Shown piece after piece: positions 2,306-17,807 of a stretch of DNA of 24,331 nt. How positions within the stretch are numbered: the stretch's first letter is position 1; every line of letters begins with the position of its first letter. Location: IMG/VR virus record IMGVR_UViG_2778261216_000006; one strand, written 5' to 3'. The translations under genes and the position numbers were made by a program. The notes below the pieces were generated by a model. It saw only the letters and a list, made by a program, of their open reading frames with translations. It was not told the DNA's origin and did not search any database. This stretch comes from a virus. Taxonomy: Duplodnaviria; Heunggongvirae; Uroviricota; Caudoviricetes.

Positions 2306-2309
2306 CACG

Positions 2310-2591
2310 TTACCGCCGTAACCGCTCCGGCTTCTTCCAGTTGTACGTAATTTTCTCTTTCTCCCTGTACATCTCTACACGGCGATTGTAGGCCAGCATT
2401 TCAAGAACGCGGATCCGTATGTCGCGCATATCCGCATCATTAAGCTGGATACCATCACGGCGCATCACCTCAGCAACAACACGCGCATAATTTTCGGCTG
2501 TCACGCTGTCCGGCTGCGTGGTCTGTTCGTCAGCCTGCTGGCTGATTCCAGAGACGCGGCGGATTAATCGCAGTATTTCGGCTTCTGTCAT
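2310..2591 (-). CDS. Hypothetical protein (93 aa) immediately downstream of terminase large subunit
   Basis: ORF begins 14 nt after the TerL stop with a GAGG ~10 nt upstream; no recognisable family. Confidence 0.5.
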   Translation of the reverse strand: MTEAEILRLIRRVSGISQQADEQTTQPDSVTAENYARVVAEVMRRDGIQLNDADMRDIRIRVLEMLAYNRRVEMYREKEKITYNWKKPERLRR

Positions 2592-2604
2592 GCTGCTGAC
2601 CTCA

Positions 2605-4266: not shown

Positions 4267-4606
4267 GCTCGTCCTCTTCTTCTGTTTCCGGTGGATTTTT
4301 ACGGCGGCTTATCGGGTCAAAACCGAGCAAAGAGGCCATTTTTATCATCACTCTTTCAGCGTCGGATTTTGCGCTTAATGCGGGGTTTCTGCTCTCGCCG
4401 CCCTGACTGTTAACAATGCTGAACCCGCGCGCCGCAAGGTCTGCAACGGCTTTCCGGTAAATGGAGTAGTTGACACAATACAGTTCCAGATTGCTCCAGT
4501 CGGCGGGGGTCAGGTCTCCCCGTTCCGCAAGCTGCCTAGATTTTTCCCGCCACTGCTTCACGGCGATATCATCCAGGTAGGCGGGGGCTTTCGGTGGTCT
4601 TGCCAT
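4250..4606 (-). CDS. Phage terminase small subunit (P27-family-like)
   Basis: 118 aa; LELYCVNYSIYRKA and RNPALSAKSDAERVMIKMASLLGFDP match the small-terminase signature; directly upstream of TerL. Confidence 0.85.
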   Translation of the reverse strand: MARPPKAPAYLDDIAVKQWREKSRQLAERGDLTPADWSNLELYCVNYSIYRKAVADLAARGFSIVNSQGGESRNPALSAKSDAERVMIKMASLLGFDPISRRKNPPETEEEDELDRLE

Positions 4607-4728
4607 GCTTATTTTTCGCCAGATTATTTTTCAAAAAATTCCCGTGCATAAAAATTTGAGGAGGCGTTCGGTGCCCGGCGGGGTCGGGTTTGTCCTGAAA
4701 ACGCCCCCCACCCCGTCATACAGCCTCA

Positions 4729-4911
4729 TCAGCGATTGCGGAAACATTCCATAACCTCGCGGTCACGGTCGGTTAATCGCTTCGCTGTGATGCGTTCTGC
4801 GCGTCCTGACGCTTTATCTTTATGCCCTGTTTCCTGTGTCTTCCATGCGTCACGCTGCCTTATAAGTCCACGGATAAGGCGGTTTTGTTCCCGATCATTC
4901 ATCAGCGTCAT
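4729..4911 (-). CDS. Hypothetical small charged protein (~60 aa) between HNH and TerS
   Basis: C-terminal part of track ORF 4729..5133 lying past the HNH stop (MTLMNDREQNRLIRGL...); the start is my estimate. Confidence 0.35.
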   Translation of the reverse strand: MTLMNDREQNRLIRGLIRQRDAWKTQETGHKDKASGRAERITAKRLTDRDREVMECFRNR

Positions 4912-5335
4912 ACATCCAGTTATTGCGGTTAGCGGCCCGTTCTTCCTCTTCACGAAATCCACCTGCGGCACGCTTGCTTTTTGTTGCCGGATCAAGCCAT
5001 TTCGTTTTCTGGTTATGACACGCCTGACACAATGGTTGATGGTTCCATTCGGGCCAGAAGAGAACATCATCACCGCCATTAATCGGGATAATGTGATCCA
5101 CCACCACGGCGGGCGTATATATCCCCTTCTCAAGGCATCGCACGCATAACGGGTTTTTACTCAGATACATGGCGCGGTATTTGTCCCACTGTCTGGAATA
5201 TCCACGCGCGCGGCGGTGTCCTCGTCTGGCATCCTCTGCACGCCATGCCGCCCGCCTGTGCTCTTCACACTTGCCGGATTTAACGCGCCTGTTACAGCCT
5301 GGTTCTGTGCATCGTCTTAATGGTTGCCACGGCAT
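4895..5335 (-). CDS. HNH endonuclease (phage packaging-associated)
   Basis: 146 aa; Cys-rich N-terminus, VVDHIIPINGG and CQACHNQKT motifs. Confidence 0.9.
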   Translation of the reverse strand: MPWQPLRRCTEPGCNRRVKSGKCEEHRRAAWRAEDARRGHRRARGYSRQWDKYRAMYLSKNPLCVRCLEKGIYTPAVVVDHIIPINGGDDVLFWPEWNHQPLCQACHNQKTKWLDPATKSKRAAGGFREEEERAANRNNWMYDADE

Positions 5336-5631
5336 CAGTACACCCCCACATCACGGTAAGCCGTCCAGAGTGCGCCAATCGTCATGGGTACGCGTGTTTT
5401 TGCGTTATCCGCGACAATCTGGCGATTCTCATACAGGTGAGCGATAAACATCATGCAGCCAATCTTTATGGCTGGCGTGAACTCCAGCCCGTCATCAAAG
5501 CGCCTGCCTATGTGTATCTGGCACGCCTCAAGCGATGCGGCAATGTATCCGCTGATTAACTGGTCTTCCTCGTCGCCATCGATGCGGCAATGGAGTTTCA
5601 CTTCTTCCAGGGTGATAAGTTCTTCTGTCAT
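5335..5631 (-). CDS. gp6-like head-tail connector protein
   Basis: 98 aa; LITLEEVKLHCRIDGDEEDQLISGYIAA N-terminus typical of this family. Confidence 0.8.
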   Translation of the reverse strand: MTEELITLEEVKLHCRIDGDEEDQLISGYIAASLEACQIHIGRRFDDGLEFTPAIKIGCMMFIAHLYENRQIVADNAKTRVPMTIGALWTAYRDVGVY

Positions 5632-6008
5632 TTTTCCGCGCCCTCACGACAAAGAATTTCAAGGCGTGTCCTGGCGGCATCCGGCAGCGGCTGCCCGATG
5701 ATATTCAGTACACGCCCCGCCAGCGGCCCCGTACTGACCTTTATCCGGCTGGTGGCGTTGATGTCCTTCCGGTACCGTATCCAGATCCTTACGGTACCAA
5801 TCGCCAGCTCTGCACCCGATGAAATGGCCTCCTTGCTGCTGACCATGTTCACGCTTGCCCAGAGTGTGTGACCGTCCTCCCACGTTTCGAGTATTTCGCC
5901 GGTTATATCCCTGGTCTGTTTCAGGGTCTGAATCGTTATCCTGTCACGCAGTCGCCCTATGTTCATTCCGGTTTTTCTCCCTCGCTGATTTTTACTTCCT
6001 GTTTCCAT
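5628..6008 (-). CDS. Phage head closure / head-tail adaptor protein
   Basis: 126 aa; MNIGRLRDRITIQ ... VRIWIRYR ... pattern; the true start may be the internal Met near 5966. Confidence 0.78.
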   Translation of the reverse strand: METGSKNQRGRKTGMNIGRLRDRITIQTLKQTRDITGEILETWEDGHTLWASVNMVSSKEAISSGAELAIGTVRIWIRYRKDINATSRIKVSTGPLAGRVLNIIGQPLPDAARTRLEILCREGAEK

Positions 6009-7174
6009 GCCTGGCTGAACTCATCACCACCATCACGCGGTGACAGTCCTTCACGTTCGCGGGCTTCGTTCGGACACATAACGCCGGATTTGATGCCGCG
6101 CTCATAGGTGGCAAAGCGTTCGCCAGGTGTGGCCCGTAACAGGTCCGCGCTGTCAAACTCCACCTGATACCGGATACCAGGTACAGGCGAGGCCACCAGC
6201 AGGGCGTTTTTTATCTGCTGCTCAAAGTTCGCCAGCCACGGGCGCATCGTCATGGTGAGAAATGCGCGGCTTGCCTCGCTGAAATTGCTGTAGGTGCTGT
6301 TGCTGTATTCCTGCAAAAAAATCGGCGAGACGTTGAACATTCGGGCGATGTCTTCAATGGTGAAGCGACGGGAGGCCAGCCATTCAGCATCCTGATTACT
6401 CATGCCCAGCTGCTGATAGCTCATACCCCCTTCAAGGATGGGCGTTTTTCCGGCGTTTCTGGCCCCTTTGTAGCGTTCCAGTGCGGCTAATGCCTGTTTG
6501 CCCTTCACGCCGTCCAGCCATTCGCCTGACGTGATAACCCCTGCCGCCATCATGCCATCACGCATCACGCTCGCGCCGTGGCGTTGTTGGGCCAGCCCAA
6601 GCCCCAGCGATTCGCGGCAGATGGTTACAGGTGAGCGCCCCATAAAGCCGTCATCCGTGGAGTAACGAAGGTGAAGTACTTCCCACGGTAAATAGTTGCG
6701 GGTGTTTCCGGTGTAAGCGTCAGTGATGCAGTAGCGCCAGTTGTGTTCGCCTGTCTGCTCCACGTTCACCGACTGCGGCGGGTAAGGATGTAAAGCCACC
6801 GGAAAACCATCACGCCCCCACTGAATCACCGCATAAGCATTACCGTTTAACAGGCAGTGGCGGATCATCATTCGCTTAAACTGGTAGGGAGTCTGCCACG
6901 CGTTCGGGCGCTCGTTGAGGATGTGATCGACCGGATGAGAATCAAGCCACTCGCGGGCCTCCTTCCCCTTCTCATTGCGTACCAGGTACAGGTAACACGG
7001 CATGGTAGCCACCGCCTCAGAGATGACCGTGACGGCGTTCATAACGGCGGGCAGTGATTCCGCTGTCCCCGATGATACGTACTCACCCGCCCCCGTGTTC
7101 GATGTGCCAGCCAGCGCCATAAACTCATCAAGCGTCATGCTGCGCTGCTCTTTTTTTCTTCTGAAAGGCCACAT
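5963..7174 (-). CDS. Phage portal protein, HK97 family
   Basis: 403 aa; size and conserved blocks of the portal family; lies between protease and head closure genes. Confidence 0.9.
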   Translation of the reverse strand: MWPFRRKKEQRSMTLDEFMALAGTSNTGAGEYVSSGTAESLPAVMNAVTVISEAVATMPCYLYLVRNEKGKEAREWLDSHPVDHILNERPNAWQTPYQFKRMMIRHCLLNGNAYAVIQWGRDGFPVALHPYPPQSVNVEQTGEHNWRYCITDAYTGNTRNYLPWEVLHLRYSTDDGFMGRSPVTICRESLGLGLAQQRHGASVMRDGMMAAGVITSGEWLDGVKGKQALAALERYKGARNAGKTPILEGGMSYQQLGMSNQDAEWLASRRFTIEDIARMFNVSPIFLQEYSNSTYSNFSEASRAFLTMTMRPWLANFEQQIKNALLVASPVPGIRYQVEFDSADLLRATPGERFATYERGIKSGVMCPNEAREREGLSPRDGGDEFSQAWKQEVKISEGEKPE

Positions 7175-7175
7175 A

Positions 7176-7748
7176 TCACACCCCCGCTAAATCCACCCAC
7201 CAGCGGCGATTATCCGCACGCGGCATTTTTTCGGGGTGCTGCTCATACAGGGAACGGCGGGCCAGCTCCACGCCGGAATCGGGGTAAGCCGGTACCGATG
7301 TAACGGTAATTTCGTACAGTTCCGCCACCAGCACGGTGCGCACGCATGGATCTGTTGTGGTATCCCATACATCCTTACGGGAGCGAAAGCCAAAGCTCAT
7401 CCCCGAGATGTCCCCACGCTTAACCAGTTCGATAACGTCGCGCCCTGTACTGGTATCCGGTGGGGTCAGTTCAAAGCGTAACCCTGTTTCGTCCTCTTCC
7501 AGTTTCAGCGTGCCGGAACGGGTGCGCCCCAGTAACATGCTGTGGTCATGCTCATACAGGCCGCGAACGTCATTACCCGCCGCAAGCCATTCAGTAAACG
7601 CCCCCCGCTGGAATTTTTCGTAAAACTCACCCCATAACAGTTCTGAAAGCTTATCCCAGCGAACAACGTAGCCCGTCAGCGTACCGGCTCCGCTGGTGGT
7701 GATTTCCGATGACCGGATTTCCATACTCTTCATAATTTTTTCACCCAT
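7176..7748 (-). CDS. HK97-family prohead serine protease
   Basis: 190 aa; TLTGYVVRWDKLS, HDHSMLLGRT and GMSFGFR blocks. Confidence 0.9.
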   Translation of the reverse strand: MGEKIMKSMEIRSSEITTSGAGTLTGYVVRWDKLSELLWGEFYEKFQRGAFTEWLAAGNDVRGLYEHDHSMLLGRTRSGTLKLEEDETGLRFELTPPDTSTGRDVIELVKRGDISGMSFGFRSRKDVWDTTTDPCVRTVLVAELYEITVTSVPAYPDSGVELARRSLYEQHPEKMPRADNRRWWVDLAGV

Positions 7749-7787
7749 AAAACACTAAAGGGGCTTTTAAGCCCCTTCTGTATGCTG

Positions 7788-8993
7788 TTAATCGTCGTCC
7801 TGTGGCAGTTCCAGAATCTTGATCGCGTTCGAATCCACCACGCCACCGCCTAAATATTTCTGCGTGAAAATTTTGATGAAGCCCGGCTCTGTGAGGTTGT
7901 CCGGTCTGGTGCGAACACCTGTTTCGTGATCAACAATGTAGTAACCGCGTTTGAAGTCACCCAGGGCAATAACGTTATCAGGCATAAACTCCAGATATTC
8001 GACCGGAAGGCCCAGCAACGTATCAGGATCACCCGCCTGTAAACGGTCGCGCCAGATGTAATCACCGTTCGCGTTCTTCACCTTCTGAAGTTTTGCCGCC
8101 GTCGTGGAGTTAACCACCCAGACCGCGTTTTTGCGGTATTTTTTACGTAATGCAAATTTCAGGTCGATCAACGGGTCCGCAGATGTCCACGCCAGAGATT
8201 CGGAAGGTTTAATTACCTGCAACGTACCAAAATCACGCTCTTTGTCGTTCTTCTCTGCACGGGGTACGGATAAAAAACCTTTTGCTTTTTTGTCACCGTC
8301 GCCCACAACCAGATCGCTTTCTTCGGTTTCCGTGAAGGTGTCGCCAATCTCACCCGTCAGCCATGAAAGGATGTCCACATCGGAAAAATCCACGATTTCC
8401 TGTGTGGTGCGCGGGTACGCATAGACCGGATACAGCTTAATGCTCACCTCGTTAATCTGCGGGGTGCTGGTCTGTTCGCGTGTCTTACCCTCTTCACCGT
8501 GGTTAACGGTCGCACCGCCAGCGGAAACAAGCTGCTTAAACTCGTTGCTGCTGATTTTCTTCACGGTACAGATGCGGCGCATGGTGGACTCATCCGCCAG
8601 CATTCGCATGATTTCGGTGTTCAGCTCGGGGATAACGGTATAACCACCATCAGCGGGAACGCCTGTACTTAATGCGCGGGTTTCACCCGTCAGAATGTAG
8701 TTTCGTAGTTCTGCGGGGTCAGTGGTCTGACTGCTTTTACCTGGCTTGCTGCGCTCTTCGTCTGCAATGGCTTCAAGGCGGGAAATGTCTTTATCGAGGG
8801 ATTCAGCTTTAGCGCGTAATTCGTCAAATTTTGCGCCCTCAGCATCGTTAAGACTGCGGTTTTCTTTTTCCGCGTTCTCCAGCATGTCGCGCATCTGATT
8901 TTTAATGGCGGTTTTCTGCTGGCGTAATTCGATTATTCTCGGCATAAAAAAAGTCCTGGGGTTAAGTAAGGAACTCCAGGACGCGGCAAACAC
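7788..8993 (-). CDS. Major capsid protein, HK97 family
   Basis: 401 aa; N-terminal coiled-coil delta-domain-like region, then a conserved HK97-fold body; start (GTG at 8993 or internal Met) uncertain. Confidence 0.93.
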   Translation of the reverse strand: MFAASWSSLLNPRTFFMPRIIELRQQKTAIKNQMRDMLENAEKENRSLNDAEGAKFDELRAKAESLDKDISRLEAIADEERSKPGKSSQTTDPAELRNYILTGETRALSTGVPADGGYTVIPELNTEIMRMLADESTMRRICTVKKISSNEFKQLVSAGGATVNHGEEGKTREQTSTPQINEVSIKLYPVYAYPRTTQEIVDFSDVDILSWLTGEIGDTFTETEESDLVVGDGDKKAKGFLSVPRAEKNDKERDFGTLQVIKPSESLAWTSADPLIDLKFALRKKYRKNAVWVVNSTTAAKLQKVKNANGDYIWRDRLQAGDPDTLLGLPVEYLEFMPDNVIALGDFKRGYYIVDHETGVRTRPDNLTEPGFIKIFTQKYLGGGVVDSNAIKILELPQDDD

Positions 8994-9035
8994 TCAACCG
9001 TTTTTCATAAGGAAATCAGCAATCGCACCGATCGT

Positions 9036-9083
9036 TTTCCCGCCTGGTAATGAATATTGGCGAGCACATTAACAGGCGGGAAA
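9036..9083. promoter_or_regulatory. 11-bp perfect inverted repeat TTTCCCGCCTG / CAGGCGGGAAA with 26-nt spacer in the leader of the capsid operon
   Basis: Read directly; located 45-90 bp upstream of the capsid gene start. Confidence 0.35.
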
Positions 9084-9157
9084 GTGGCCCCAGCGTCCTG
9101 GCACCACGGGCGAGAATAATCATGATTCAGTTCGGGTAAAATATGCCGATCCGCTCA

Positions 9158-9189
9158 GTGAACAACGTGGAACAACCACGAACAAATAA
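9158..9189. promoter_or_regulatory. Dyad motif GTGAACAACGTGGAACAACCACGAACAA upstream of the capsid operon
   Basis: Contains palindrome CGTGG-AACAA-CCACG; near-identical copy, inverted, at 15115-15145; half-sites inside both att arm repeats. Confidence 0.4.
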
Positions 9190-9226
9190 TTTACAAAAAA
9201 TAACAAAAAGCCGGATTGCTCCGGCT
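9190..9226 (-). terminator. Rho-independent terminator (hairpin AGCCGGAGCAATCCGGCT plus T-run on minus strand)
   Basis: Stem-loop followed by TTTTTGTTATTTTTT on the minus strand, just downstream of ORF 9246..9470. Confidence 0.6.
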
Positions 9227-9245
9227 GTATGTGCTGTATGGGTGC

Positions 9246-9470
9246 TCAGTCTCTGATCCCTTTCAGAAATTCTATCAATGCATCTGTCTGTTCAGGATTT
9301 ACTGCCAGCATTTCACCGGATAGCGCGCAACGAACAAAACCATGATGATCCTTTTCAATCAGCGCCCCCGTTTCCAGAAATGCGCGGTAATCAGTGATAT
9401 TCATCGTCTCCATGTTGTCAGCATGGTATTTATCACGCTGTTTAAGTATCTCATCAAATTTCATCGGCAT
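9246..9470 (-). CDS. Hypothetical protein (74 aa), moron-like gene flanked by two copies of the same terminator
   Basis: Internal Met of track ORF 9246..9548, preceded by GAGGAAAACGCA; no family recognised. Confidence 0.55.
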   Translation of the reverse strand: MPMKFDEILKQRDKYHADNMETMNITDYRAFLETGALIEKDHHGFVRCALSGEMLAVNPEQTDALIEFLKGIRD

Positions 9471-9562
9471 TGCGTTTTCCTCTGTTGTGTCTGTTTGTTT
9501 CAGATAGTAACTATGCCGGACCGTGACGAAAAGCCAGTAGTGCTCCATACCGTTTCAAATGA

Positions 9563-9588
9563 CGCAAAAAAGCCGGATTGCTCCGGCT
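9563..9588 (-). terminator. Rho-independent terminator (second copy of AGCCGGAGCAATCCGGCT hairpin)
   Basis: Same hairpin plus T-run on the minus strand, downstream of the PerC-like gene. Confidence 0.6.
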
Positions 9589-9610
9589 GCGTGGTGTGGT
9601 TCTGATATTC

Positions 9611-9859
9611 CTACTCAGCTAATTTGCTCAGCCCCATGTCTGCGTAAGTGCGATTTACTGCATTTCTCAGGTCTGCGTAGTTCTCCGTTGGCGGCTCCGG
9701 TGGCCTCTGTGCCTTCCTGGAACATTCCAGCCGTCGCATCGTAACCTGATGCCGTTCCTTGTCTGTCTCCACCAGTTGCATGACTTCACCCCATCGCGCC
9801 GACGCCCTCCGGTAAAATCCTTTCGCCTCGAGTTCCTCCGCTATGCGGTCATGTACCAT
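9611..9859 (-). CDS. PerC-family-like transcriptional regulator (82 aa)
   Basis: Start at internal Met with strong SD (GAGGGGGTGA); MVHDRIAEELEAKGFYRRASARWGEVM resembles the PerC-family N-terminus (from memory). Confidence 0.5.
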   Translation of the reverse strand: MVHDRIAEELEAKGFYRRASARWGEVMQLVETDKERHQVTMRRLECSRKAQRPPEPPTENYADLRNAVNRTYADMGLSKLAE

Positions 9860-9869
9860 CGTCACCCCC

Positions 9870-10280
9870 TCAGAACGGAATACCGTCACCGTAAGGGTCA
9901 TCGCCTCCCGCTGGTGGCTGATTACCCTGTGTGCCTGTGGTTTTGCGTCTGTTCCCGCCTGGACGTGCCGCGCGGGCACTGATTACGCTGTCTGCAATAA
10001 CCTGATACCCCCGCCGCGTTTCCCCGTTCTGTCCGGTCCACTGGCTTACCTGCATCGTGCCGGATACGCTGGCAACATCGCCTTTTTGATGTTTAGCCAG
10101 GAAATCGGCCTGTTTGCCAAATGCGATAACCGATAACCATAACGTCGCCTGTCCGTCCTGTGCCTGGCTGCATGGCAAAGATACCGCCATACGCGCCAGC
10201 GTCATCGGTGTGCCCTTGCTGGTCTGTTTTACCTGCGGGTCGTCCACCAGCCGCCCGTAAGCCGCTATCTGTGCTGTCAT
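9870..10280 (-). CDS. Single-stranded DNA-binding protein (SSB-like)
   Basis: 136 aa; OB-fold core blocks, Gly/Pro-rich linker and acidic C-terminal tip ending DGIPF; ATGA overlap with the upstream gene. Confidence 0.8.
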   Translation of the reverse strand: MTAQIAAYGRLVDDPQVKQTSKGTPMTLARMAVSLPCSQAQDGQATLWLSVIAFGKQADFLAKHQKGDVASVSGTMQVSQWTGQNGETRRGYQVIADSVISARAARPGGNRRKTTGTQGNQPPAGGDDPYGDGIPF

Positions 10281-10528
10281 GCTGTCTGCTCTCCGGTTTT
10301 AACGTTGATTGTTGTTACCTGTTCCGCTTCGGCAATCTCCCGTTCTGTCAGCGTGGCAAAGTTTGCCGCCGCTGTTGTCATGAATGCGCTTATCAGTTCG
10401 GGATGCTCCTTCGCGTATCCTTCCCCCGCGTGGCGGTCTATCGTTCTGATTGCCACCTTTAAAGCCAGTTCAGCCATATCTAACGCCTTATATTTCGGCT
10501 CTGTTCTGTCTCTGCGTTTTTGGGTCAT
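10277..10528 (-). CDS. Hypothetical protein (start uncertain, 66-84 aa)
   Basis: Track ORF 10277..10558 overlaps the iterons at its 5' end, so an internal Met (10528 or 10477) is the likely start; translationally coupled to ssb. Confidence 0.5.
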   Translation of the reverse strand: MTQKRRDRTEPKYKALDMAELALKVAIRTIDRHAGEGYAKEHPELISAFMTTAAANFATLTEREIAEAEQVTTINVKTGEQTA

Positions 10529-10540
10529 TTCTCGCAACCT

Positions 10541-10730
10541 CTCACTTTTTCGCCTCACTTTTTCAAGCGTCTCACTTCGTCGCAGTTGGGATTTTTGGTT
10601 TTTCTATGTGTGTGTTTCATAAGTATTTTTTTACCCCTCACTTTTGAGGATGTATACAGGTCGAAAAGTGAGGGAGAGCAGGCTAATTTTGGCCCTCTTT
10701 CCACCCCCCTCGCTTTTGCTCCTCACTTTT
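10541..10730. repeat. Iteron array (CTCACTTTT repeats, at least 6 copies in both orientations) with AT-rich spacer: candidate island replication origin
   Basis: Copies near 10541, 10554, 10571 (variant), 10637, 10665 (inverted), 10709 (variant), 10722; immediately downstream of the replication helicase gene. Confidence 0.55.
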
Positions 10731-12138
10731 ATAGCGGCGCTACATCATCCCCATCGATACGAATAACCCCATCTTTTTCCAGCTTGTACAGCCAGCGCCG
10801 GAAGTTTTTCATTTCATACCCCAGTTTTTTCATGTCATCACGTAACAGCGGGATCGTGCACTTGTCGCCGTTCTGTGTGCGTGAACGGATGCACCCCCAT
10901 AGCGCGGTATGGTTTTCCGTCTTGTTCCCTGCCTCCTCGATGCGCTCCAGTTCAACGGGAGGGCGCGGCTTATCCACCACCACCAGCGACGTGATTAACT
11001 CCCCGTCAGCGTCGGTAAAAAGCTCCACCACCCGCAAATCATAGGCAGCCTCTTTGAGTTCCTCCGCGTCCTTCATTTTGGTGCATGAGATAACCAGCGC
11101 TTCGCTTCCTGCGTCCTCCCTGCGTATCCGGTATTCAGCATCCAGTGATGCACGAAATGCACTGGAACCGCGCGCGCCTTTCGTCTCATCCTTGCCGGAA
11201 TGGTGAACCACCAGCACCGTGGCCCCTGTGCGTCGTTTCAGTTCGTCACACCCACGGATAAACGCCCCCATGTCGCGGGAGTCATTTTCATCATTGCCGC
11301 CAAAGCAGCGCGCCAGCGTGTCCAGAATAATCATGCGAACAGGTTTACCCGTTTCCCTCTCCACCTGACTGGCAGCAATAACCAGTTCATCAACATCAAG
11401 CGGGACAGCCGGAAAGATGGGACGGTTTACCAGATACAGATTTTTCACCTGCTCACCGTGCACAACCTCCCAGGCTTTTACACGACGCGGAACGCCGATA
11501 CCGCCTTCACCAACCACATAGAGAACAGCGCCATGCGCCACCCTGCGGCCTCCCCACTGGCGGCCCGTGGAAACGTGACACGCCCACGATCCGGCAAGGA
11601 ATGATTTATAGGAACCGCTCGCCCCGTATATGCTGCAAAGCGACGATGCCGGAATAATCCCCTTTACCACGTAATCAAGCTGTGTGTCGTATCCGGTAGA
11701 TCCAACGCTCATCGGTAGCGTGGTTTTTCGCTGGGGAATTTTTTTCATGACCAGGCTTTCCCCGCGTTCCCATGCCTCCCTAAGCCGTGGAAGCTGGTCG
11801 CTCCATTCCTCCAGCAATTCGAAATTTTCAGAAAGTAGCCGCGCCTCCTGGACTCCGGCGATCGCCAGTTTCGTGGCGATGGTTAACAGCTGCGGCTCTT
11901 CAATATTTCCGGCGCGTATCACCGTCGCCCTGTATCGCCCATCATCAACAATCTGGAGGTTATCCAGTTCGCTTAACTGATAACGCCCCAGATAAACGGG
12001 AGGGACTGGATCGCCTGCTTTTTTGGCCTGTGCAATGATGTAATGCTCTGCGAATGAGTGAGCATCAATACCCGCAAAAATAATCGCATCGGTGTATTTG
12101 TCTTTCGGTAATAGTTTTACGTTCGGTGCCAGTTTCAT
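10729..12138 (-). CDS. Replication protein, RepA-like AAA ATPase/helicase (satellite pri-rep type)
   Basis: 469 aa; Walker A (YGASGSYKSF), Walker B (RMIILDTL), VVHHSGKDETKGARGSSA block. Confidence 0.85.
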   Translation of the reverse strand: MKLAPNVKLLPKDKYTDAIIFAGIDAHSFAEHYIIAQAKKAGDPVPPVYLGRYQLSELDNLQIVDDGRYRATVIRAGNIEEPQLLTIATKLAIAGVQEARLLSENFELLEEWSDQLPRLREAWERGESLVMKKIPQRKTTLPMSVGSTGYDTQLDYVVKGIIPASSLCSIYGASGSYKSFLAGSWACHVSTGRQWGGRRVAHGAVLYVVGEGGIGVPRRVKAWEVVHGEQVKNLYLVNRPIFPAVPLDVDELVIAASQVERETGKPVRMIILDTLARCFGGNDENDSRDMGAFIRGCDELKRRTGATVLVVHHSGKDETKGARGSSAFRASLDAEYRIRREDAGSEALVISCTKMKDAEELKEAAYDLRVVELFTDADGELITSLVVVDKPRPPVELERIEEAGNKTENHTALWGCIRSRTQNGDKCTIPLLRDDMKKLGYEMKNFRRWLYKLEKDGVIRIDGDDVAPL

Positions 12139-12434
12139 TTTTTACCCCTGAATCCGTTAATCATGGTTTTCAGCTTCTGGATGTTTGCCCGTGCCCTGGC
12201 GTTGCTGGTGGGCACGTTATGCGGCGCGGTCTGTACCAGAGAAAAATCACGCCGGAACTGATAAACAGGCATCACGCAATCATATTCGTAACCTTCACGG
12301 CGGTAAGTTACGCACCGTCCCGCCACGCCCTTAATCATTACCATGCCGCCGTACTGGTCGCGGTAAATATCACCGCGCGTAAATTTAGGGTGAGTGTTGC
12401 CACTGGCAGTTAAGCCAGAATATTTAAGTTTCAT
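12135..12434 (-). CDS. Hypothetical protein (99 aa)
   Basis: GGAGA SD ~9 nt upstream; stop overlaps the rep start (ATGA). Confidence 0.55.
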   Translation of the reverse strand: MKLKYSGLTASGNTHPKFTRGDIYRDQYGGMVMIKGVAGRCVTYRREGYEYDCVMPVYQFRRDFSLVQTAPHNVPTSNARARANIQKLKTMINGFRGKK

Positions 12435-12439
12435 TATTT

Positions 12440-12670
12440 TTATTCTCCGGTGTGGGGCGCGTTATTATTTTCGTGAATTGCCATTGCCTTATCCAGTTCA
12501 TCAATAACAGGCGATAGTAATGTCTGAATGGCTGCAAACATTAATGACGAAGATTCTTCGCCAGATTCCGGCACTTCAATTAATTTGCCTAACAACGCAT
12601 TCATTTCCTTTGCGCGGATTAATGCGTTTTCAGAGTGGATTAATACTTCAAAAGGGATTTTATGCATCAC
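12440..12670 (-). CDS. Hypothetical protein (76 aa)
   Basis: AAGGGAG SD upstream; tightly packed in the operon. Confidence 0.5.
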   Translation of the reverse strand: MMHKIPFEVLIHSENALIRAKEMNALLGKLIEVPESGEESSSLMFAAIQTLLSPVIDELDKAMAIHENNNAPHTGE

Positions 12671-12890
12671 AAATTTTCTCCCTTATTCTTTTAATGTCCT
12701 CATTAAGGATGTCTGTAACTTTTATCAGCGAGTTTTTGGCAATTATTTTTATTGTTTTAAGTTTTCTTTTGTCGTGCTCCGACTGTGATTTTCTCTCCAT
12801 GCTCTCCACCATGTGGGTAACATCAACGAGCGCACGTATCAGTATTTGCATTGCTTCTTCTGCTGCGTCCGGTGTGGTTTTATTGTGCAT
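12660..12890 (-). CDS. Hypothetical protein (76 aa), first gene of the replication operon
   Basis: Internal Met of track ORF 12660..12932 with strong SD (AGGGGGAAACCT). Confidence 0.5.
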   Translation of the reverse strand: MHNKTTPDAAEEAMQILIRALVDVTHMVESMERKSQSEHDKRKLKTIKIIAKNSLIKVTDILNEDIKRIREKICDA

Positions 12891-13122
12891 AGGTTTCCCC
12901 CTGGCGAATACGGGCGGCAAATACAGCAACACAACCGGACGGGCAACGGTTACGCGCTTCGCGTTCCGTCCAGGCGGTTACGTGGATGATTTGACGTTCT
13001 GACGCGCCAAAGGCAATAAAGCGCCAGATGTATTTATTCAGGTTGTGCGAGTCCCGCCCTTGCGGGTGTGTGGTATGATTTCTCATAGCTACCTCGATAC
13101 TATTGCTATCGTTGGTGGTTAG

Positions 13123-13156
13123 ACGCCCCGTATGTGTGCCACCACTGCGGGGCGTT
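13123..13156 (+). terminator. Conserved hairpin GACGCCCCG...CGGGGCGTT (copy 1) bounding cassette 1
   Basis: 8-bp GC-rich stem; near-identical copy at 13860-13896. Confidence 0.45.
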
Positions 13157-13167
13157 GCCTTTTGGTG

Positions 13168-13208
13168 CAAGTCACCTTTAAAGGCTATGCTACTTTCAGG
13201 TGACTTGC
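13168..13208. promoter_or_regulatory. 11-bp perfect inverted repeat GCAAGTCACCT / AGGTGACTTGC (operator-like) upstream of cassette 1
   Basis: Read directly; followed by a T-rich tract and TATACT -10-like hexamer (~13241). Confidence 0.4.
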
Positions 13209-13276
13209 ACTTCAAGCCTTTTTTTATTTTTTTTTCTGCGTATACTGAACGCCACCTAACAGTAAGGAGGCCAGTA

Positions 13277-13456
13277 ATGCCAACGGGTACAACCAACAAC
13301 AAATCACAACAAAAAACGGCTAGAGTTCCTCTAGAAGTTTTAAGCGAAATGAATTTGGTCAAAGAAGAAAACGAAACAGACGCGCAATTCATCGTTACAG
13401 CCATGCGCGGCGAAATCAAACGCCGCCAGCGCCGCAAGGCCAAAGAATCAGAATAA
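13277..13456 (+). CDS. Arc-like ribbon-helix-helix DNA-binding protein (59 aa)
   Basis: Strong SD AAGGAGG 6 nt before ATG; RVPLEVLSEMNLVKEENETDAQFIVTAM matches the Arc pattern (P-x-E-V-L ... EEN). Confidence 0.55.
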   Translation: MPTGTTNNKSQQKTARVPLEVLSEMNLVKEENETDAQFIVTAMRGEIKRRQRRKAKESE

Positions 13457-13461
13457 TCACT

Positions 13462-13505
13462 ATCAGCGCCGTGGTGTGAGGAACTCCGGCGCATTGCTTT
13501 ACAGG
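13462..13505 (+). promoter_or_regulatory. Conserved 44-bp intergenic element ATCAGCGCCGTGGTGTGAGGAACTCCGGCGCATTGCTTTACAGG (copy 1)
   Basis: Contains stem GCGCCG/CGGCGC; second copy at 14146-14189 with a single mismatch. Confidence 0.5.
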
Positions 13506-13513
13506 GCAGCACT

Positions 13514-13741
13514 ATGAACGAACACACATCATCACCGGAAAACGGCGAAAGCACGTCAACATATGAAATCATCCGGCAAAGGCAGTCAGAAGCCTGCGCC
13601 AGACTTGAGGAAGAACTAACCAGAACAAAAATACCACCACCAGCGCCGCGCTTAGTGCCACCAGAAAAATTTGCCCTTGAAGATTTTGTCGATAAATACC
13701 CACGGCGGCTTAAATCCGGCAAAAACCGACCGCCAGGATGA
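13514..13741 (+). CDS. Hypothetical small protein (75 aa), partner of the Arc-like gene
   Basis: ATG 9 nt after the conserved element; shares F-A-x-x-x-F-V-D-K-Y-P-R-R block with the 14198..14401 product. Confidence 0.4.
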   Translation: MNEHTSSPENGESTSTYEIIRQRQSEACARLEEELTRTKIPPPAPRLVPPEKFALEDFVDKYPRRLKSGKNRPPG

Positions 13742-13859
13742 GTGCACAAAACCGAACTATGAAACGGATTATTCCGTTTCCGGGGCGTTTGTGTGTGTAT
13801 AAAGAGTAAGCTATGCTCTTTTATAGCCATAATCGTTACCTCAATTAATGGTTTGGTTA

Positions 13860-13902
13860 GACGCCCCGTATGTGTTCCCATCACTGCGGGGCGTTGTTTT
13901 TT
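13860..13902 (+). terminator. Conserved hairpin GACGCCCCG...CGGGGCGTT plus T-run (copy 2), between cassettes
   Basis: Stem followed by GTTGTTTTTTG. Confidence 0.5.
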
Positions 13903-13945
13903 GTGCTAGTTGTGTGTAATGTGTATATACACATAAACACATTAT

Positions 13946-14140
13946 ATGGGTGTAATTGACGTGTCAACACACAAAAATGAAAGGCGTGGTAATCCTCCTT
14001 TCCAGTTCCGTTTAGATCCTGACTTACGGGAAAAGATGGAAAAAGCACAACAACAAGACGGTGATGACTCTTTAGCTGCTTGGATAAAACGAATAATCCG
14101 AAAAGAATTACAGCAACGCGGTATTGAACCCAAAGAATAA
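13946..14140 (+). CDS. Arc-like ribbon-helix-helix DNA-binding protein (59-64 aa)
   Basis: PPFQFRLDPDLREKMEKAQQQDGDDSLAAWIKRIIRKE follows the Arc pattern (from memory); start ATG 13946 or GTG 13961; palindrome ATGTGTATATACACAT just upstream. Confidence 0.55.
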   Translation: MGVIDVSTHKNERRGNPPFQFRLDPDLREKMEKAQQQDGDDSLAAWIKRIIRKELQQRGIEPKE

Positions 14141-14197
14141 AAAACATCAGCGCCGTGGCGTGAGGAACTCCGGCGCATTGCTTTACAGGTACACACA

Positions 14198-14401
14198 ATG
14201 ACCAATAAAGAATCAACCAATACACCATCGCAAAAAACGAACAGAGAGCACGAAAATATGGCGCTCGAGCATGAATCAGAAAGATTCGCTCCATGCGCTT
14301 TTGTCCTTGATGAGTTTCTAAAAAAATATTCACGTTCTGAACGGATGAAAATGGCAGCACAATACGGCCCCAACAAGCAAGGTAATTGCCCACCAGCCTG
14401 A
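14198..14401 (+). CDS. Hypothetical small protein (67 aa), paralogue of the 13514..13741 product
   Basis: Same position relative to the conserved element; shared FxxxxFVLDEFLKKYSR block. Confidence 0.4.
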   Translation: MTNKESTNTPSQKTNREHENMALEHESERFAPCAFVLDEFLKKYSRSERMKMAAQYGPNKQGNCPPA

Positions 14402-14473
14402 TAGCGGCTATCATTCCCGTGCTTATGTTTGGGATCACATACACATAAGGCGCAGCAGGTTAATTGTTCAGAA

Positions 14474-14506
14474 AGGCGGCTCCATATCGGGGCCGCTTTT
14501 TTTATG
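14474..14506 (+). terminator. Rho-independent terminator ending the plus-strand cassettes
   Basis: GCGGC...GCCGC stem followed by TTTTTTT. Confidence 0.55.
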
Positions 14507-14644
14507 CCTGAAAAACCCCAATTTTGTTGTTTTTCAGTTTCACCAGGGCGAACGAATCCCCGCCCACGTTCGGGCGCATATTCAATCTTCATAGTTATAT
14601 CTCTGTATTAGTGGATGTGTGGCGACTGTGTGCCGCCAGTCTTT

Positions 14645-14833
14645 TTAGTGAACTGCCTTGCAGCTATCCTTCCAGGCCAAAACCTCAGATAAAGACCAGC
14701 CAACAGAACGCCCACCAAGTTTACGACGTGATGGGAATTGTCCGGCCTTTTCCAGGCGGTAGCGGCATGAGCGGCTAAGGCCTGTTAGCTTTTCGCATTC
14801 TTTTTCACGTATAAACCGATCAGTGCTTAACAC
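14645..14833 (-). CDS. alpA: AlpA-family phage regulatory protein (Xis-like activator)
   Basis: 62 aa; LSEVLAWKDS-type C-terminus typical of the AlpA family; sits just downstream of the integrase as in PICIs. Confidence 0.88.
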   Translation of the reverse strand: MLSTDRFIREKECEKLTGLSRSCRYRLEKAGQFPSRRKLGGRSVGWSLSEVLAWKDSCKAVH

Positions 14834-14995
14834 TATTGCCCCCTTTCGTTTCTTAAAGAGTTATTTCGTGTTCTATTGCGTTGGGATGTGTCTGATTGTG
14901 TCAGGATGATTCAGAGTTGGCAAATGTTGGTGTCGCATGGTTTACAGAAAGAGGAATAATCAGGATAAAATCATTTAAATTCATGTTAATACAAA

Positions 14996-15030
14996 GGCAT
15001 AAAATCTTGTTTTATGCCTTTTTTCGCACG
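14996..15030. terminator. Hairpin GGCATAAAA-TCTTG-TTTTATGCC with flanking T-run between int and alpA
   Basis: 9-bp perfect stem followed by TTTTTT on the plus strand; weaker T-tract on the minus strand. Confidence 0.45.
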
Positions 15031-15114
15031 CTTTAACGCGTAATTCACTAATGTATAAAAAACCAGTCACACAAATAAAATCAGTCACTTATAAACCTGC
15101 GTACTTTTTCGCCT

Positions 15115-15145
15115 CTTGTTCGTGGTTGTTCCACGTTGTTTCACA
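15115..15145. promoter_or_regulatory. Inverted copy of the GAACAACGTGGAACAACCACGAACAA dyad motif
   Basis: Reverse complement matches 9158-9189 over ~28 bp; ~70 bp downstream of the int stop. Confidence 0.4.
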
Positions 15146-15207
15146 TTGTTCGCCGTTGTATCTGTGTGCTTATCCAGTATACGCATACTGAAAAAACACG
15201 AAAAAAA

Positions 15208-16458
15208 TTATTTTCTTCTGGCTGCTGGTAGTGCGGTTACGTTTTCATGTGTTCCCGCCAGTATCCCTAACCGCTCCGTCCACATATCCAGCGCATTGCG
15301 TTTAGCATCCAGATAACGGGAATGATTATAAACTCGCTGCATTCCTGGCATCTGGTGGCCTGTAAGCTGCTCCACGACGTGCGGATCAACGCCTAAATCG
15401 TTCAGCATGGTTGTAAAGGTGCGCCGGATGTCATGCAGTGACCAGTGAGGGTGTTTAAGCCTCCTGTGCGCTAATCTGCCGTACTGCGACACGCTGGTTT
15501 CCTGTTTCACTTCCCCCAGCAATAAGCCCGTGTGCCTGTTCTGCTCCACCAGCTGCGTGATGAACGGCAGTATCGCTTCCGGTATGGGCCGGAATATGGC
15601 TACCTTCGTTTTACTGTGCTCCTTCGGAACGGTCCAGAGCATTTCGGTAAAATCCCACTCGCCGATCTCAGATAACCTAAGTTCGACCGTCCGGCATCCG
15701 AACACAATCAGGAGGCGGATTAGCGCGATGTAGTAGGGGGAGAATATTTTTTTGTCCAGTGCCTGCAATAATTCGCCAAGTTCTTTGTTGCTTAAGACAC
15801 GCTCGCTTATATCCGGTTTTTTCCCAACGTCAGCCACACTCATATCATCAAGAACGTTGCTGATTGCATAGCGCCGCTTCCTGCAGAACTTAAGCGCCTG
15901 CTTGCATGTCTGTAGCAGGAACCCGGCGGAAACAGGGGCTTTCTTTGCCACCCGATCAAAACAGGCCAGCCAGTGCCGTAGCTCGCATTTATCCAGCGGC
16001 ATAGGGCCAATGTGCTGTATTACGTGATTATTTAGCCGCTTTTTCAGTGGGTCATAATCCACACGGTTTTCCTTTGCGTACGACTCAAGCCAGTAGGTGA
16101 GCGCATCGCCAACCGTTACAGGCTTTAACGCTTCCTGTACGGAGTAATTCATCTCATGGCGTGGATTTTTCCCTTCTGCCAGCCATGCACGACACTGGGC
16201 GGCTTTTTCCCTGGCTGATTTCAGGCTCAGATCAGGATAATTTCCCAGCTTAATGCGTTCCGGTGGTGCCCCCCTTCCCGCTCCGGCCCTGTAAGTGAAA
16301 TACCAGGTTAAAAGGCCGCTGGTTGAATGCCTGACACTCAGGTTTCCACCGTCATTAAGAAAGGCTGTTTTTTGGGCGGGTGTGCCGTTGATTTTCCTTA
16401 GCTGTGTATCGCTCAGTTTGTTAAGTGCTCTGCTCATAATTTTGAATCCGGTCATCAC
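15208..16458 (-). CDS. int: Tyrosine recombinase/integrase, P4-like family
   Basis: 416 aa; N-terminal arm-binding-like region, catalytic-domain blocks (HDIRRTF, LGHQMPG-type); start codon uncertain (GTG 16458, ATG 16455 or 16437). Confidence 0.94.
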   Translation of the reverse strand: MMTGFKIMSRALNKLSDTQLRKINGTPAQKTAFLNDGGNLSVRHSTSGLLTWYFTYRAGAGRGAPPERIKLGNYPDLSLKSAREKAAQCRAWLAEGKNPRHEMNYSVQEALKPVTVGDALTYWLESYAKENRVDYDPLKKRLNNHVIQHIGPMPLDKCELRHWLACFDRVAKKAPVSAGFLLQTCKQALKFCRKRRYAISNVLDDMSVADVGKKPDISERVLSNKELGELLQALDKKIFSPYYIALIRLLIVFGCRTVELRLSEIGEWDFTEMLWTVPKEHSKTKVAIFRPIPEAILPFITQLVEQNRHTGLLLGEVKQETSVSQYGRLAHRRLKHPHWSLHDIRRTFTTMLNDLGVDPHVVEQLTGHQMPGMQRVYNHSRYLDAKRNALDMWTERLGILAGTHENVTALPAARRK

Positions 16459-16535
16459 AATTAACTACACCATTAACTACACCGATCGTTGCACAAAGGG
16501 CTACAACGTGAAACAAGCTGGAACAAGAAAAATCA
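16455..16535. repeat. Right arm-type repeat (ATTAACTACACCATTAACTACACCG ... GAAACAAGCTGGAACAA)
   Basis: Direct repeat of 1541-1612, between the int start and the attR core. Confidence 0.5.
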
Positions 16536-16608
16536 CAAATCTGTTTATAATCAAAAACATAACGCACAACCTGAAACATTATGAAACGGCAAAAAACACT
16601 AATTGATA

Positions 16609-16618
16609 AAATATGTCC
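16609..16618. repeat. attR core (AAATATGTCC)
   Basis: Direct repeat of 1460-1469. Confidence 0.5.
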
Positions 16619-16685
16619 ATACTTCACGCATTACGTTAAGCATCCGTTATAATCGGTTGCAGATACCAGCCTGTGGATGCTTAAC

Positions 16686-17807
16686 ATGGAATACCAACTC
16701 ACTCTTAACTGGCCCGATTTTCTTGAACGTCACTGGCAGAAACGCCCGGTGGTGTTAAAACGCGGCTTTAATAATTTTATTGACCCGATCTCTCCAGACG
16801 AGTTGGCGGGTCTGGCGATGGAAAGCGAAGTTGACAGTCGACTGGTCAGTCACCAGGATGGCAAATGGCAGGTCAGCCACGGCCCGTTCGAAAGCTACGA
16901 TCATCTCGGTGAAACCAACTGGTCATTACTGGTACAGGCAGTGAACCACTGGCATGAGCCGACCGCCGCGCTGATGCGACCGTTCCGTGAACTACCGGAC
17001 TGGCGTATTGATGATCTGATGATCTCTTTTTCTGTACCGGGCGGCGGCGTCGGCCCGCATCTCGATCAGTACGACGTGTTTATCATTCAGGGTACCGGTC
17101 GTCGTCGCTGGCGAGTGGGCGAAAAGCTGCAAATGAAACAGCACTGTCCGCACCCGGATCTGTTACAGGTCGATCCGTTCGAAGCCATCATCGATGAAGA
17201 GCTGGAGCCTGGCGATATTCTTTATATTCCGCCAGGATTCCCGCATGAAGGCTACGCGCTGGAAAATGCGATGAACTATTCCGTGGGTTTTCGCGCGCCA
17301 AATACGCGGGAATTAATTAGCGGATTTGCCGATTATGTGCTGCAACGTGAACTGGGCGGCAACTACTACAGCGATCCGGATGTTCCACCTCGCGCTCATC
17401 CTGCGGACGTTCTGCCGCAAGAGATGGATAAACTGCGTGAGATGATGCTCGAATTGATCAACCAGCCGGAACACTTTAAGCAATGGTTTGGCGAGTTTAT
17501 ATCCCAGTCACGTCATGAACTGGATATCGCGCCGCCGGAACCGCCTTATCAGCCAGATGAAATCTACGATGCGCTGAAACAAGGTGAAGTGCTGGTGCGC
17601 CTGGGTGGTCTGCGCGTATTGCGCATTGGCGACGACGTGTATGCCAATGGTGAGAAGATCGATTCCCCGCACCGTCCGGCACTGGATGCACTCGCCAGCA
17701 ACATTGCGCTGACTGCGGAGAATTTTGGCGATGCGCTGGAAGATCCGTCATTCCTCGCGATGCTCGCGGCGCTGGTCAATAGCGGGTATTGGTTCTTCGA
17801 AGGGTAA
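16686..17807 (+). CDS. roxA: Ribosomal protein L16 arginine hydroxylase (JmjC/cupin oxygenase) RoxA/YcfD
   Basis: Protein MEYQLTLNWPDFLERHWQKRPVVL... recognised as YcfD; track ORF starts 3 codons upstream. Confidence 0.93.
   Translation: MEYQLTLNWPDFLERHWQKRPVVLKRGFNNFIDPISPDELAGLAMESEVDSRLVSHQDGKWQVSHGPFESYDHLGETNWSLLVQAVNHWHEPTAALMRPFRELPDWRIDDLMISFSVPGGGVGPHLDQYDVFIIQGTGRRRWRVGEKLQMKQHCPHPDLLQVDPFEAIIDEELEPGDILYIPPGFPHEGYALENAMNYSVGFRAPNTRELISGFADYVLQRELGGNYYSDPDVPPRAHPADVLPQEMDKLREMMLELINQPEHFKQWFGEFISQSRHELDIAPPEPPYQPDEIYDALKQGEVLVRLGGLRVLRIGDDVYANGEKIDSPHRPALDALASNIALTAENFGDALEDPSFLAMLAALVNSGYWFFEG

Follow-up and report, generated by a model that had tools for sequence, protein, structure and literature searches.

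An rgdR orthologue and two small satellite genes in the coupled early operon of a capsid-forming phage-inducible chromosomal island

The IMG/VR virus record IMGVR_UViG_2778261216_000006, a Caudoviricetes sequence of 24,331 nucleotides that is referred to here in its full length as the window, carries three small genes, A, B and C, immediately upstream of the replicase gene of a phage-inducible chromosomal island (PICI). All three lie on the minus strand, with gene A (76 amino acids (aa), ATG start) at 12660..12890, gene B at 12440..12667 (75 aa from an ATG at 12667, or 76 aa from a GTG at 12670) and gene C (99 aa) at 12135..12434. They are followed on the same strand by rep (10729..12138), which encodes a 469-aa RepA-family (AAA_25) replicative helicase (PF13481, E 3.7e-43; phrog_2850), and are preceded by a gene for a 68-aa Icd-like protein (12880..13086, minus strand), which scores 61 bits (cutoff 25) with NF033153 phage_ICD_like, the NCBIfam model for Icd-like inhibitors of host cell division, and whose counterpart is annotated as Icd-like by RefSeq in every relative retrieved. 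An initial annotation of the window, made from the sequence alone, had already placed three translationally coupled open reading frames (ORFs) of 76, 76 and 99 aa at exactly these limits, though with no strand given, each with a Shine–Dalgarno sequence and directly ahead of rep in an island of the PICI type, and all of this holds. It had also taken the trio to head the replication operon and had recognised no family for any of its members, and here the picture changes. The Icd-like gene comes first and overlaps gene A, so the trio does not head the operon; A, B and C are instead genes 2 to 4 of a five-gene coupled early operon, icd-A-B-rgdR-rep. Gene C is the rgdR gene of this series and belongs to DUF4222 (PF13973), and genes A and B match phrog_5146 and phrog_2196, respectively, both of them families without an assigned function.

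The island measures about 15 kb and lies between phoQ (1–1461) and roxA/ycfD (from 16677). Read along the minus strand it comprises an integrase gene, alpA (14645..14833; PF05930, E 5e-18), a 1.5-kb stretch of small ORFs on the opposite strand, the Icd-like gene, A, B, C and rep. Beyond rep, a phrog_1231 gene, ssb and a PerC homologue are followed by the packaging genes, which encode an HK97-type capsid protein, a prohead protease, a portal, head completion and connector proteins, an HNH protein and the terminase subunits TerS and TerL. A capsid-forming PICI (cf-PICI) was defined as an island of about 15 kb that has an integrase, alpA and a replicase together with its own capsid-to-terminase set, and that is devoid of tail and lysis genes. 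Pfam matches for the integrase, AlpA, replicase, capsid, protease, portal, connectors, TerS and TerL all fall within 2310–16458, and among the ORFs of at least 90 aa no candidate for a tail gene is left in the island. The window hence contains a cf-PICI of the OI-51/Sp7/EcCIEDL933 type, whose insertion site lies between phoQ and roxA. EcCIEDL933 is the prototype cf-PICI, and EcCIEDL933/Sakai Sp7 shares with the window int, alpA, rep, ssb, perC/pchE and the HK97-type set from capsid to TerL (Alqurainy et al., bioRxiv 10.1101/2022.09.08.507074).

The coupling of the operon is apparent at its junctions. The start of gene A overlaps the end of icd by 11 nt (ATGCACAATAA), with GGGGGA placed 6 nt upstream. 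The start of B overlaps the end of A by 8 nt from the ATG or by 11 nt from the GTG, with GGGAG 7–10 nt upstream, and the relatives in RefSeq use the ATG, giving a protein of 75 aa. Gene C follows the stop codon of B after a gap of 5 nt and has GGAG 10 nt upstream, and the stop codon of C and the start codon of rep are merged in ATGA, with AGGGG upstream. In a RefSeq island that is 97% identical the same four small coding sequences are annotated, followed by the helicase gene.

That these frames are genes is supported by their conservation. Homologous proteins form 24 clusters for A, 107 for B and 362 for C, and no internal stop was found in the homologues of any of the three. Across the DNA of related loci the ratio of nonsynonymous to synonymous substitution rates (dN/dS) is 0.43 for A, 0.23 for B and 0.30 for C, next to 0.33 for icd, the value for A coming from only five informative pairs and its coding statistics from four distinct DNA sequences. 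Variable sites in all three genes are enriched at third codon positions, the excess in A being mild (18 against 11 and 12). Both the conservation and the coding signature on which the initial annotation had made its proposal depend are thus found, and the substitution patterns indicate purifying selection on all three genes. It might still be argued that some of these frames, A at least, are open by chance within an AT-rich spacer and are not genes. The GC content of A and B is 33–41%, compared with 48–60% in icd, rgdR and rep, and A, the stretch with the lowest GC, also has the weakest family match (E 5.7e-6), the highest dN/dS and the mild third-position excess just mentioned. Against this, the 76-aa frame of A stays intact, free of stops and frameshifts, down to 75% protein identity and in islands with different neighbours; it has a Shine–Dalgarno sequence and a start/stop overlap at both ends, and it is called alike by RefSeq and by independent gene calls. 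The frame that lies opposite the genes, an antisense ORF of 160 aa (12520–13002), is by comparison interrupted by two stops in relatives that are 95% identical. Chance is excluded for B and C and is very unlikely for A.

Gene C matches DUF4222 along the whole of the model (positions 1–53 of 53), scoring 81.8 bits where 27 is the cutoff (E 2.5e-23), and phrog_285 with an E of 4.7e-31; there is no NCBIfam model for it. Over residues 1–99 the protein can be aligned without gaps to Sakai ECs_1581, with 76.8% identity; identity rises to 95% with the allele from a different O157:H7 strain, and is 77–83% with the published RgdR proteins. It keeps R20-G21-D22 (in ...KFTRGDIY...), K35 and R61. Within the RgdR family G21 and D22 are invariant, position 20 varies between R, L, N and P, and a core spanning residues 40–68 is nearly invariant. 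The protein is strongly basic, with an isoelectric point (pI) of 10.2 and a net charge of +11.6. With collinear similarity over 99 aa and the identity floor of about 77%, as published, taken as the criterion of orthology, the sequence comparison shows C to be an RgdR orthologue, and this part of the result was already known. The likeness to RgdR/ECs1581 of OI-51, an island also called CP-933C and Sp7, extends to the surroundings, as each of the two genes directly precedes a replicase gene, is coupled to it through ATGA and lies in an island at phoQ/roxA. The two proteins differ at 23 positions, including VAGRCV for VEERRV (36–41), A10 for D10, R45 for H45 and the version of the C-terminal helix. 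The islands also differ in the replicase, which is a RepA-type protein of 469 aa in the window and a 710-aa primase in OI-51, and in the small upstream genes, which are ECs1578–1580 in OI-51 and A and B in the window.

RgdR is a 99-aa protein of pI 10 that was described when the loss of type III secretion caused by deletion of OI-51 was mapped to it (Flockhart et al. 2012, PMC3378721). The rgdR gene alone complements deletion of the gene as well as deletion of the whole island, and its product activates the LEE1 promoter, which belongs to the enterocyte effacement locus (LEE), with or without Ler, lowers motility and raises Congo-red binding (PMC3378721). The purified protein binds DNA non-specifically in electrophoretic mobility shift assays, and both R20, within the RGD tripeptide, and K35 modulate the activation of type III secretion (PMC3378721). 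RgdR has been reported from every E. coli PICI analysed. The functional literature found on DUF4222 consists of RgdR/ECs1581 alone, and no later mechanistic work on RgdR, nor any test of it in the satellite life cycle, was found in the literature.

An AlphaFold2 model of RgdR, built with 43 homologues, has a predicted local distance difference test (pLDDT) score above 90 for residues 21–60. It contains strands at 23–26, 31–38, 41–46, 52–56 and 64–68 and an amphipathic helix at 77–96 with seven basic and no acidic residues. The model firmly predicts a five-stranded Tudor/SH3-like barrel (about residues 21–68) joined to a basic helix, and a specific partner does not follow from this fold class. 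Fold matches include the Tudor domains of the UvrD/PcrA helicases, which are among the best, as well as eukaryotic Tudor domains, FeoA and DUF1653. The same predicted fold class is seen in Tudor, KOW and SH3-like barrels that dock on RNA polymerase, namely the C-terminal Tudor domain of UvrD/PcrA, the RNA polymerase interaction domain (RID) of CarD/CdnL and the KOW domain of NusG/Spt5. In CarD, a barrel of this kind is joined to a basic region that binds DNA non-specifically. The structure prediction that the initial annotation had suggested gave models of the RgdR barrel and of the hairpin of B described below, and the remote homology search brought up no homologue of solved structure for A, B or C. 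A profile search of the PDB with the alignment of C gave no match, and a search of BFVD returned only uncharacterised small barrels and DUF1653, at E 7e-4 or weaker. When 1.84 billion representative proteins were scanned for DUF4222 with HMMER, 80 clusters were found, nearly all of them stand-alone proteins of at most 110 aa. Fusions of DUF4222 were rejected as far as the two long matches are concerned, these being spurious Rib-repeat proteins. One further protein, P0304 (179 aa, a single cluster), has an N-terminal DUF4222 followed by the zinc ribbon of a primase-helicase (PF08273), and is either a natural fusion of rgdR to a primase gene or possibly a frameshift artefact.

The architecture of the operon was compared in 86 loci, made up of the window, 80 IMG/VR contigs and five genome records. 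In every one of them the stop codon of rgdR and the start codon of the next gene form ATGA, regardless of the type of replicase that follows. The next gene encodes a RepA-type helicase in about 49 loci, a D5_N/DUF5906 primase-helicase in about 31 and a protein of 711–714 aa in three, and is truncated in four. In about 80 of the 86 loci the gene directly upstream of rgdR is B-like, and it may be of the 75-aa type found in the window, of a 77-aa type that is 35% identical, or of the more distant 80-aa type represented by ECs1580 of Sakai. All B-like genes end in ...(T/I)GE, and these are the codons that bear the Shine–Dalgarno sequence of rgdR. The interval between icd and B is by contrast a mosaic. 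Its commonest order is icd-A-M-B-rgdR, where M is a gene of 73–77 aa that is fused to an A-like half in a 154-aa protein of O157, and A-like genes fill the mosaic slot after icd in most related loci. The order of the window, icd-A-B-rgdR, occurs in six loci, icd-B-rgdR in three and icd-rgdR in two. Statements on identity and architecture are made with high confidence.

The first 120–140 residues of the replicase (residues 1–140 of rep, 11719–12138) are common to the RepA-type, primase-type and Sakai 710-aa replicases, at 41–67% identity. There is no Pfam family for this N-terminus, which may be a common origin-binding or partner-binding domain. It was considered as the partner of RgdR and rejected, as it has no Pfam match and is only 41% identical between replicase types.

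Among 5426 complete E. coli genomes, the icd-A-B-rgdR stretch of the window type is present over at least 80% of its length in 39, and partial matches, mostly to rgdR, occur in 1298. A tblastn search of 50,697 phage records gave one weak match each for C and B, in records of satellite size (8.6 and 16.5 kb), and no match for A; the three genes are essentially absent from true phages. The weak match to B adjoins a primase gene in the 16.5-kb record, an 'induced prophage' that is apparently another satellite.

Genes A and B are small proteins of quite different character. The product of B matches phrog_2196 with E 4e-10, and the named members of its clusters come from Escherichia or Shigella. 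It is acidic (pI 4.9, net charge −7), and its AlphaFold2 model (pLDDT 81.7) is an antiparallel two-helix hairpin with helices at 6–31 and 38–68. The product of A is mildly basic (pI 8.8), and every named cluster of its family is from Escherichia. Its N-terminal 38 aa are 47% identical to the N-terminal half of the 154-aa O157 protein, and A-like proteins in general share an N-terminus of the form MxNKTTPDAAxEA..L..AL.D and a ...SLN(D/E)...C... tail, with middles that vary. The idea that A and B are paralogues was rejected on an hhalign probability of 0.2%. Neither has a match in Pfam, NCBIfam, PADLOC or the PDB, the last giving only noise for B, and none of A, B, C and icd matches a PADLOC-DB defence family at E values up to 0.1.

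The region that would control the operon was aligned over the 170 nt upstream of the icd start codon from 64 distinct loci. At a conserved position in these upstream regions lies a sigma-70-like sequence, which in the window has a −35 element TTGAAG at 13215–13210 and a −10 element TAGCAT at 13192–13187 (minus strand), separated by a 17-nt spacer and preceded by an A-tract. As it agrees with the consensus at only 8 of 12 positions, it was missed by a simple promoter scan. The −10 element is bracketed by a perfect 13-nt inverted repeat, with arms GTGCAAGTCACCT (13210–13198) and AGGTGACTTGCAC (13177–13165), and the whole segment (13165..13215, minus strand) is considered a putative operon promoter with a candidate operator. 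Other islands have at least 12 types of repeat at the same place, with arms of 8–14 nt that are complementary within each. A gene for a 59-aa protein of the YlcI/YnfO family (13277..13456, plus strand; NF041551, E 7.6e-17) diverges from icd at a distance of 190 nt and is a candidate for the repressor. Its family can be aligned by hhalign to another small family, whose member in the window lies at 13946–14140, with a probability of 80% (P 1.4e-5), and a PDB profile search with this second family matches only Mnt (E 0.16) and Arc (E 0.61) of P22. The alignment of the 59-aa family with Arc itself has a P of 8.6e-4; in Pfam the 59-aa protein has no match, and a relative from the second family reaches the Arc domain at E 0.038.

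The most variable stretch of the 59-aa protein is formed by the five residues before an invariant Arg, which align to the DNA-reading beta-strand of Arc, and each of the 12 peptide types seen in this strand is paired with exactly one repeat sequence. AlpA was rejected as the reader of the repeat because one AlpA allele (98–100% identical) goes with at least nine repeat types; two repeat types, in turn, each go with AlpA alleles that are only 64% identical. The 59-aa gene and the inverted repeat have the pattern of a repressor–operator specificity module. The 59-aa protein could be a master repressor, a kind of regulator not known so far from Gram-negative PICIs. Whether such islands possess a global repressor was left open by the founding paper, which established AlpA as the activator of their early genes (Fillol-Salom 2018), and no literature was found that links a ribbon-helix-helix (RHH) protein to Gram-negative PICIs.

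The interval between alpA and icd has been called a dynamic 'Bro zone', in which some islands have immunity RNAs (Mageeney et al.). In the window it holds, within 13100–14640, two tandem units of small plus-strand ORFs, of about 685–740 bp, each consisting of an RHH-like gene (13277–13456; 13946–14140) and a partner of 67–75 aa (13514–13741; 14198–14401). The units are marked by direct repeats at 13450–13517/14134–14201 and 13116–13164/13854–13903, and look like stacked remnants of immunity modules. A minus-strand ORF of 334 aa (12880–13884) runs in frame into icd, RefSeq labels such frames as Icd-like pseudogenes, and some relatives have two or three copies of icd. The predicted icd leader contains a GC-rich hairpin, ACGCCCCG-N16-CGGGGCGT, at 13123–13155 (minus strand), with a second copy near 13860–13895 and a short T-run following it on the plus strand. 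In one related locus, L004, both arms change together (AAGCCCCG / CGGGGCTT) as a compensatory pair. No Rfam family matches this hairpin, and no C4- or CI-type immunity RNA was detected upstream of icd in Rfam at gathering or permissive thresholds.

Two groups of known systems provide the closest comparisons. The immI module of P1 is ordered c4-icd-ant, with icd leading and overlapping ant, and that of P22 is ordered arc-mnt-ant, with the Arc/Mnt RHH gene beside the promoter. The window resembles these modules in having an Icd-like gene first, an overlapping next gene and a putative Arc/Mnt-like RHH gene (by sub-threshold similarity) beside the promoter, and differs in that neither an Ant homologue nor a c4 RNA was found in it and that A, B, rgdR and the replicase gene come after icd. 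The left operon of P4 (vis – kil/eta/CI – epsilon – orf151 – cnr – alpha) likewise has small genes co-transcribed ahead of a primase/helicase, with an AlpA/Vis-type gene upstream. Within it, Cnr is the copy-number regulator of P4 and acts on the alpha protein. Searches of A, B and C for the P4 epsilon family (PF25738) gave no Pfam match at E values up to 0.1 and nothing by hmmsearch or hhalign, and there was likewise no match to Cnr (DUF5375, PF17345), for which the resemblance is positional only; as positive controls, P4 epsilon matched PF25738 with E 2.9e-50 and P4 Cnr matched PF17345 with E 2.9e-63. The N-terminus of P4 ORF151 (7440–7895 in locus L090), in a comparable place of the left operon, shows the two most conserved motifs of DUF4222 in the same order (GEIYR...; ...PLGRFLREFT). 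The hhalign P of 0.002–0.008 for this pair is not significant after some 15 comparisons, and ORF151 may represent a remote link between the early operons of P4-like elements and PICIs.

The island as a whole is a mosaic relative to Sakai Sp7. Nucleotide identity is 95% over 2056–10530 and 91% over 14105–17328, and the 3.6 kb between them (10530–14105), where rep, rgdR, B, A, icd and the cassettes on the other strand lie, belong to another module. The island thus resembles Sp7 in its packaging half and int/alpA arm (91–95%), and the early/replication module has been swapped, a RepA-type helicase replacing the 710-aa primase. A gene of the PerC/Pch family (9611–9979, minus strand) lies close upstream of the capsid module, at the place that pchE has in Sakai. 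With this gene beside RgdR, the island has two proteins known as LEE regulators from work on enterohaemorrhagic E. coli (EHEC), and the native job of RgdR and the Pch homologue may be the control of the island's own late genes.

The explanation favoured overall, with moderate confidence, is that the operon is a coupled early operon of a cf-PICI from which a host-acting RgdR is made. The mechanistic steps that follow are more tentative. RgdR would be a host-directed transcription or nucleoid co-factor of low specificity, its Tudor-like barrel contacting a protein while the basic helix holds DNA. The promoter upstream of icd would be weak, needing AlpA, and would be shut by the divergent Arc-like repressor bound to the inverted repeat around the −10 element. 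In the integrated state RgdR would be present at a low basal level, which would explain the deletion phenotype in uninduced EHEC, and it would be made together with Icd and Rep once AlpA switches the island on. The virulence phenotypes would then be side effects of its general activity. A and B are most likely small protein-binding modulators, neither enzymes nor DNA binders. B, of opposite charge and fixed beside rgdR, is a probable partner or buffer of RgdR, and A appears to be an exchangeable accessory, one allele of a family of proteins of about 75 aa that occupies the mosaic slot after icd. Several points weigh against this scheme. The roles given to RgdR in the island cycle and to A and B are drawn from sequences and models, and the hairpin fold of B is generic, matching thousands of structures. 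RgdR is active in trans without B, which is therefore dispensable for that activity. The match of the promoter to the consensus is weak, the Arc-like assignment comes from sub-threshold similarity and, as the 59-aa gene adjoins the repeat, linkage alone could give the one-to-one pairing of repressor alleles and repeats; the coding statistics of A, finally, are those of four DNA sequences.

Other functions have to be weighed for the same genes. RgdR may be an accessory of island replication, an initiator partner that tunes origin binding or copy number in the manner of Cnr, with A and B as further subunits of the replication module. The constancy of the ATGA junction with replicases of the RepA, D5/primase and 711–714-aa types would suit such a role, and so would the equivalent operon position of P4 cnr directly upstream of alpha, the linkage of DUF4222 to a primase zinc ribbon in P0304 and the UvrD/PcrA helicase domains among the best fold matches. 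However, coupling is found at every junction of the operon and does not single out rgdR and rep, and P0304 may be artefactual. C has no sequence similarity to Cnr/DUF5375, and the replicase N-terminus is only 41% identical where RgdR is 80% identical, the two not moving together as a single conserved unit. Moreover, a plasmid with only rep, under an arabinose promoter, and ori replicates in DH5alpha (PMC6092414), and rgdR alone restores the host phenotypes in a strain that has lost the whole island, replicase included (PMC3378721). A replication role is therefore regarded as unlikely. A similarly low probability is given to the view of the initial annotation, which noted that PICIs are reported to carry such functions at this place, that these genes serve to sense the helper phage or to interfere with it. 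They might do so, for example, as anti-repressors in the way of P4 epsilon, or by inhibiting helper proteins. No report was found that places such genes at this position in Gram-negative PICIs, and the sole positional precedent for a helper-directed gene is epsilon, which derepresses the helper from an equivalent place in P4 and to which none of A, B and C is homologous. An epsilon homologue has been reported in some cf-PICIs (PMC10085698). Between icd and B the islands form a pronounced mosaic in which A-like genes, M, g70 and other small genes come and go, A-like proteins combine a common N-terminus with variable remainders, and these genes are nearly absent from true phages, all of which would agree with helper-directed functions. 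Yet A, B, C, M and g70 match neither PF25738 nor any PADLOC model, and RgdR and B are conserved in a way that does not resemble an arms race. The known interference by E. coli PICIs operates through Rpp or the islands' own capsid genes, which are located in the packaging region, and helpers induce these islands by acting on the expression of alpA (Fillol-Salom 2018). A helper-directed role is possible only for the variable A slot, where it is conjectural.

The neighbouring position of B and rgdR could also be that of an antagonist pair, in which acidic B neutralises basic RgdR in the style of an antitoxin or anti-factor and RgdR becomes active once B is degraded or out-titrated. The strict adjacency, the opposite net charges and the retention of ...TGE in divergent B subfamilies, where the C-terminal codons of B carry the Shine–Dalgarno sequence of rgdR, are in keeping with this. 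On the other hand, when expressed on its own from a plasmid RgdR is both tolerated and active (PMC3378721), no toxin or antitoxin family is matched, rgdR occurs without B in two loci, and the B-like subfamilies diverge to 26–35% identity where RgdR remains at 77–95%, which would be unusual for a tightly co-evolving pair. An antagonist pair is consequently thought improbable.

A bolder version of the favoured host-acting RgdR is that the protein did not arise as a virulence regulator and would be a universal host-takeover factor of E. coli PICIs, its barrel docking on a conserved host machine, its helix lying on DNA and B serving as the dedicated partner. This version is decidedly doubtful. By analogy with CarD and the C-terminal domain of UvrD, the host machine could be the beta lobe of RNA polymerase, or else it could be the nucleoid filament of H-NS. 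If this were true, the island would need silencing to be relieved in general for the sake of its own AT-rich early genes, and the activation of LEE, the reduced motility and the Congo-red binding would follow as by-products.

The finding is largely ordinary, because C is the RgdR already described and A and B are recurrent small satellite proteins. It mainly fills an annotation gap, in that one 'unknown' gene becomes a published virulence-modulating regulator and the other two become members of recurrent satellite families. RgdR is nevertheless a protein that was described 14 years ago and that is found in roughly one in four complete E. coli genomes, always joined to a satellite replicase, and its predicted Tudor-like fold and fixed acidic neighbour provide concrete partners that can be tested. 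Exchangeable accessory functions of Gram-negative PICIs can be sought at a definite location, the mosaic slot that follows icd, and the candidate repressor–operator pair that emerged as a by-product may matter more than the trio itself.

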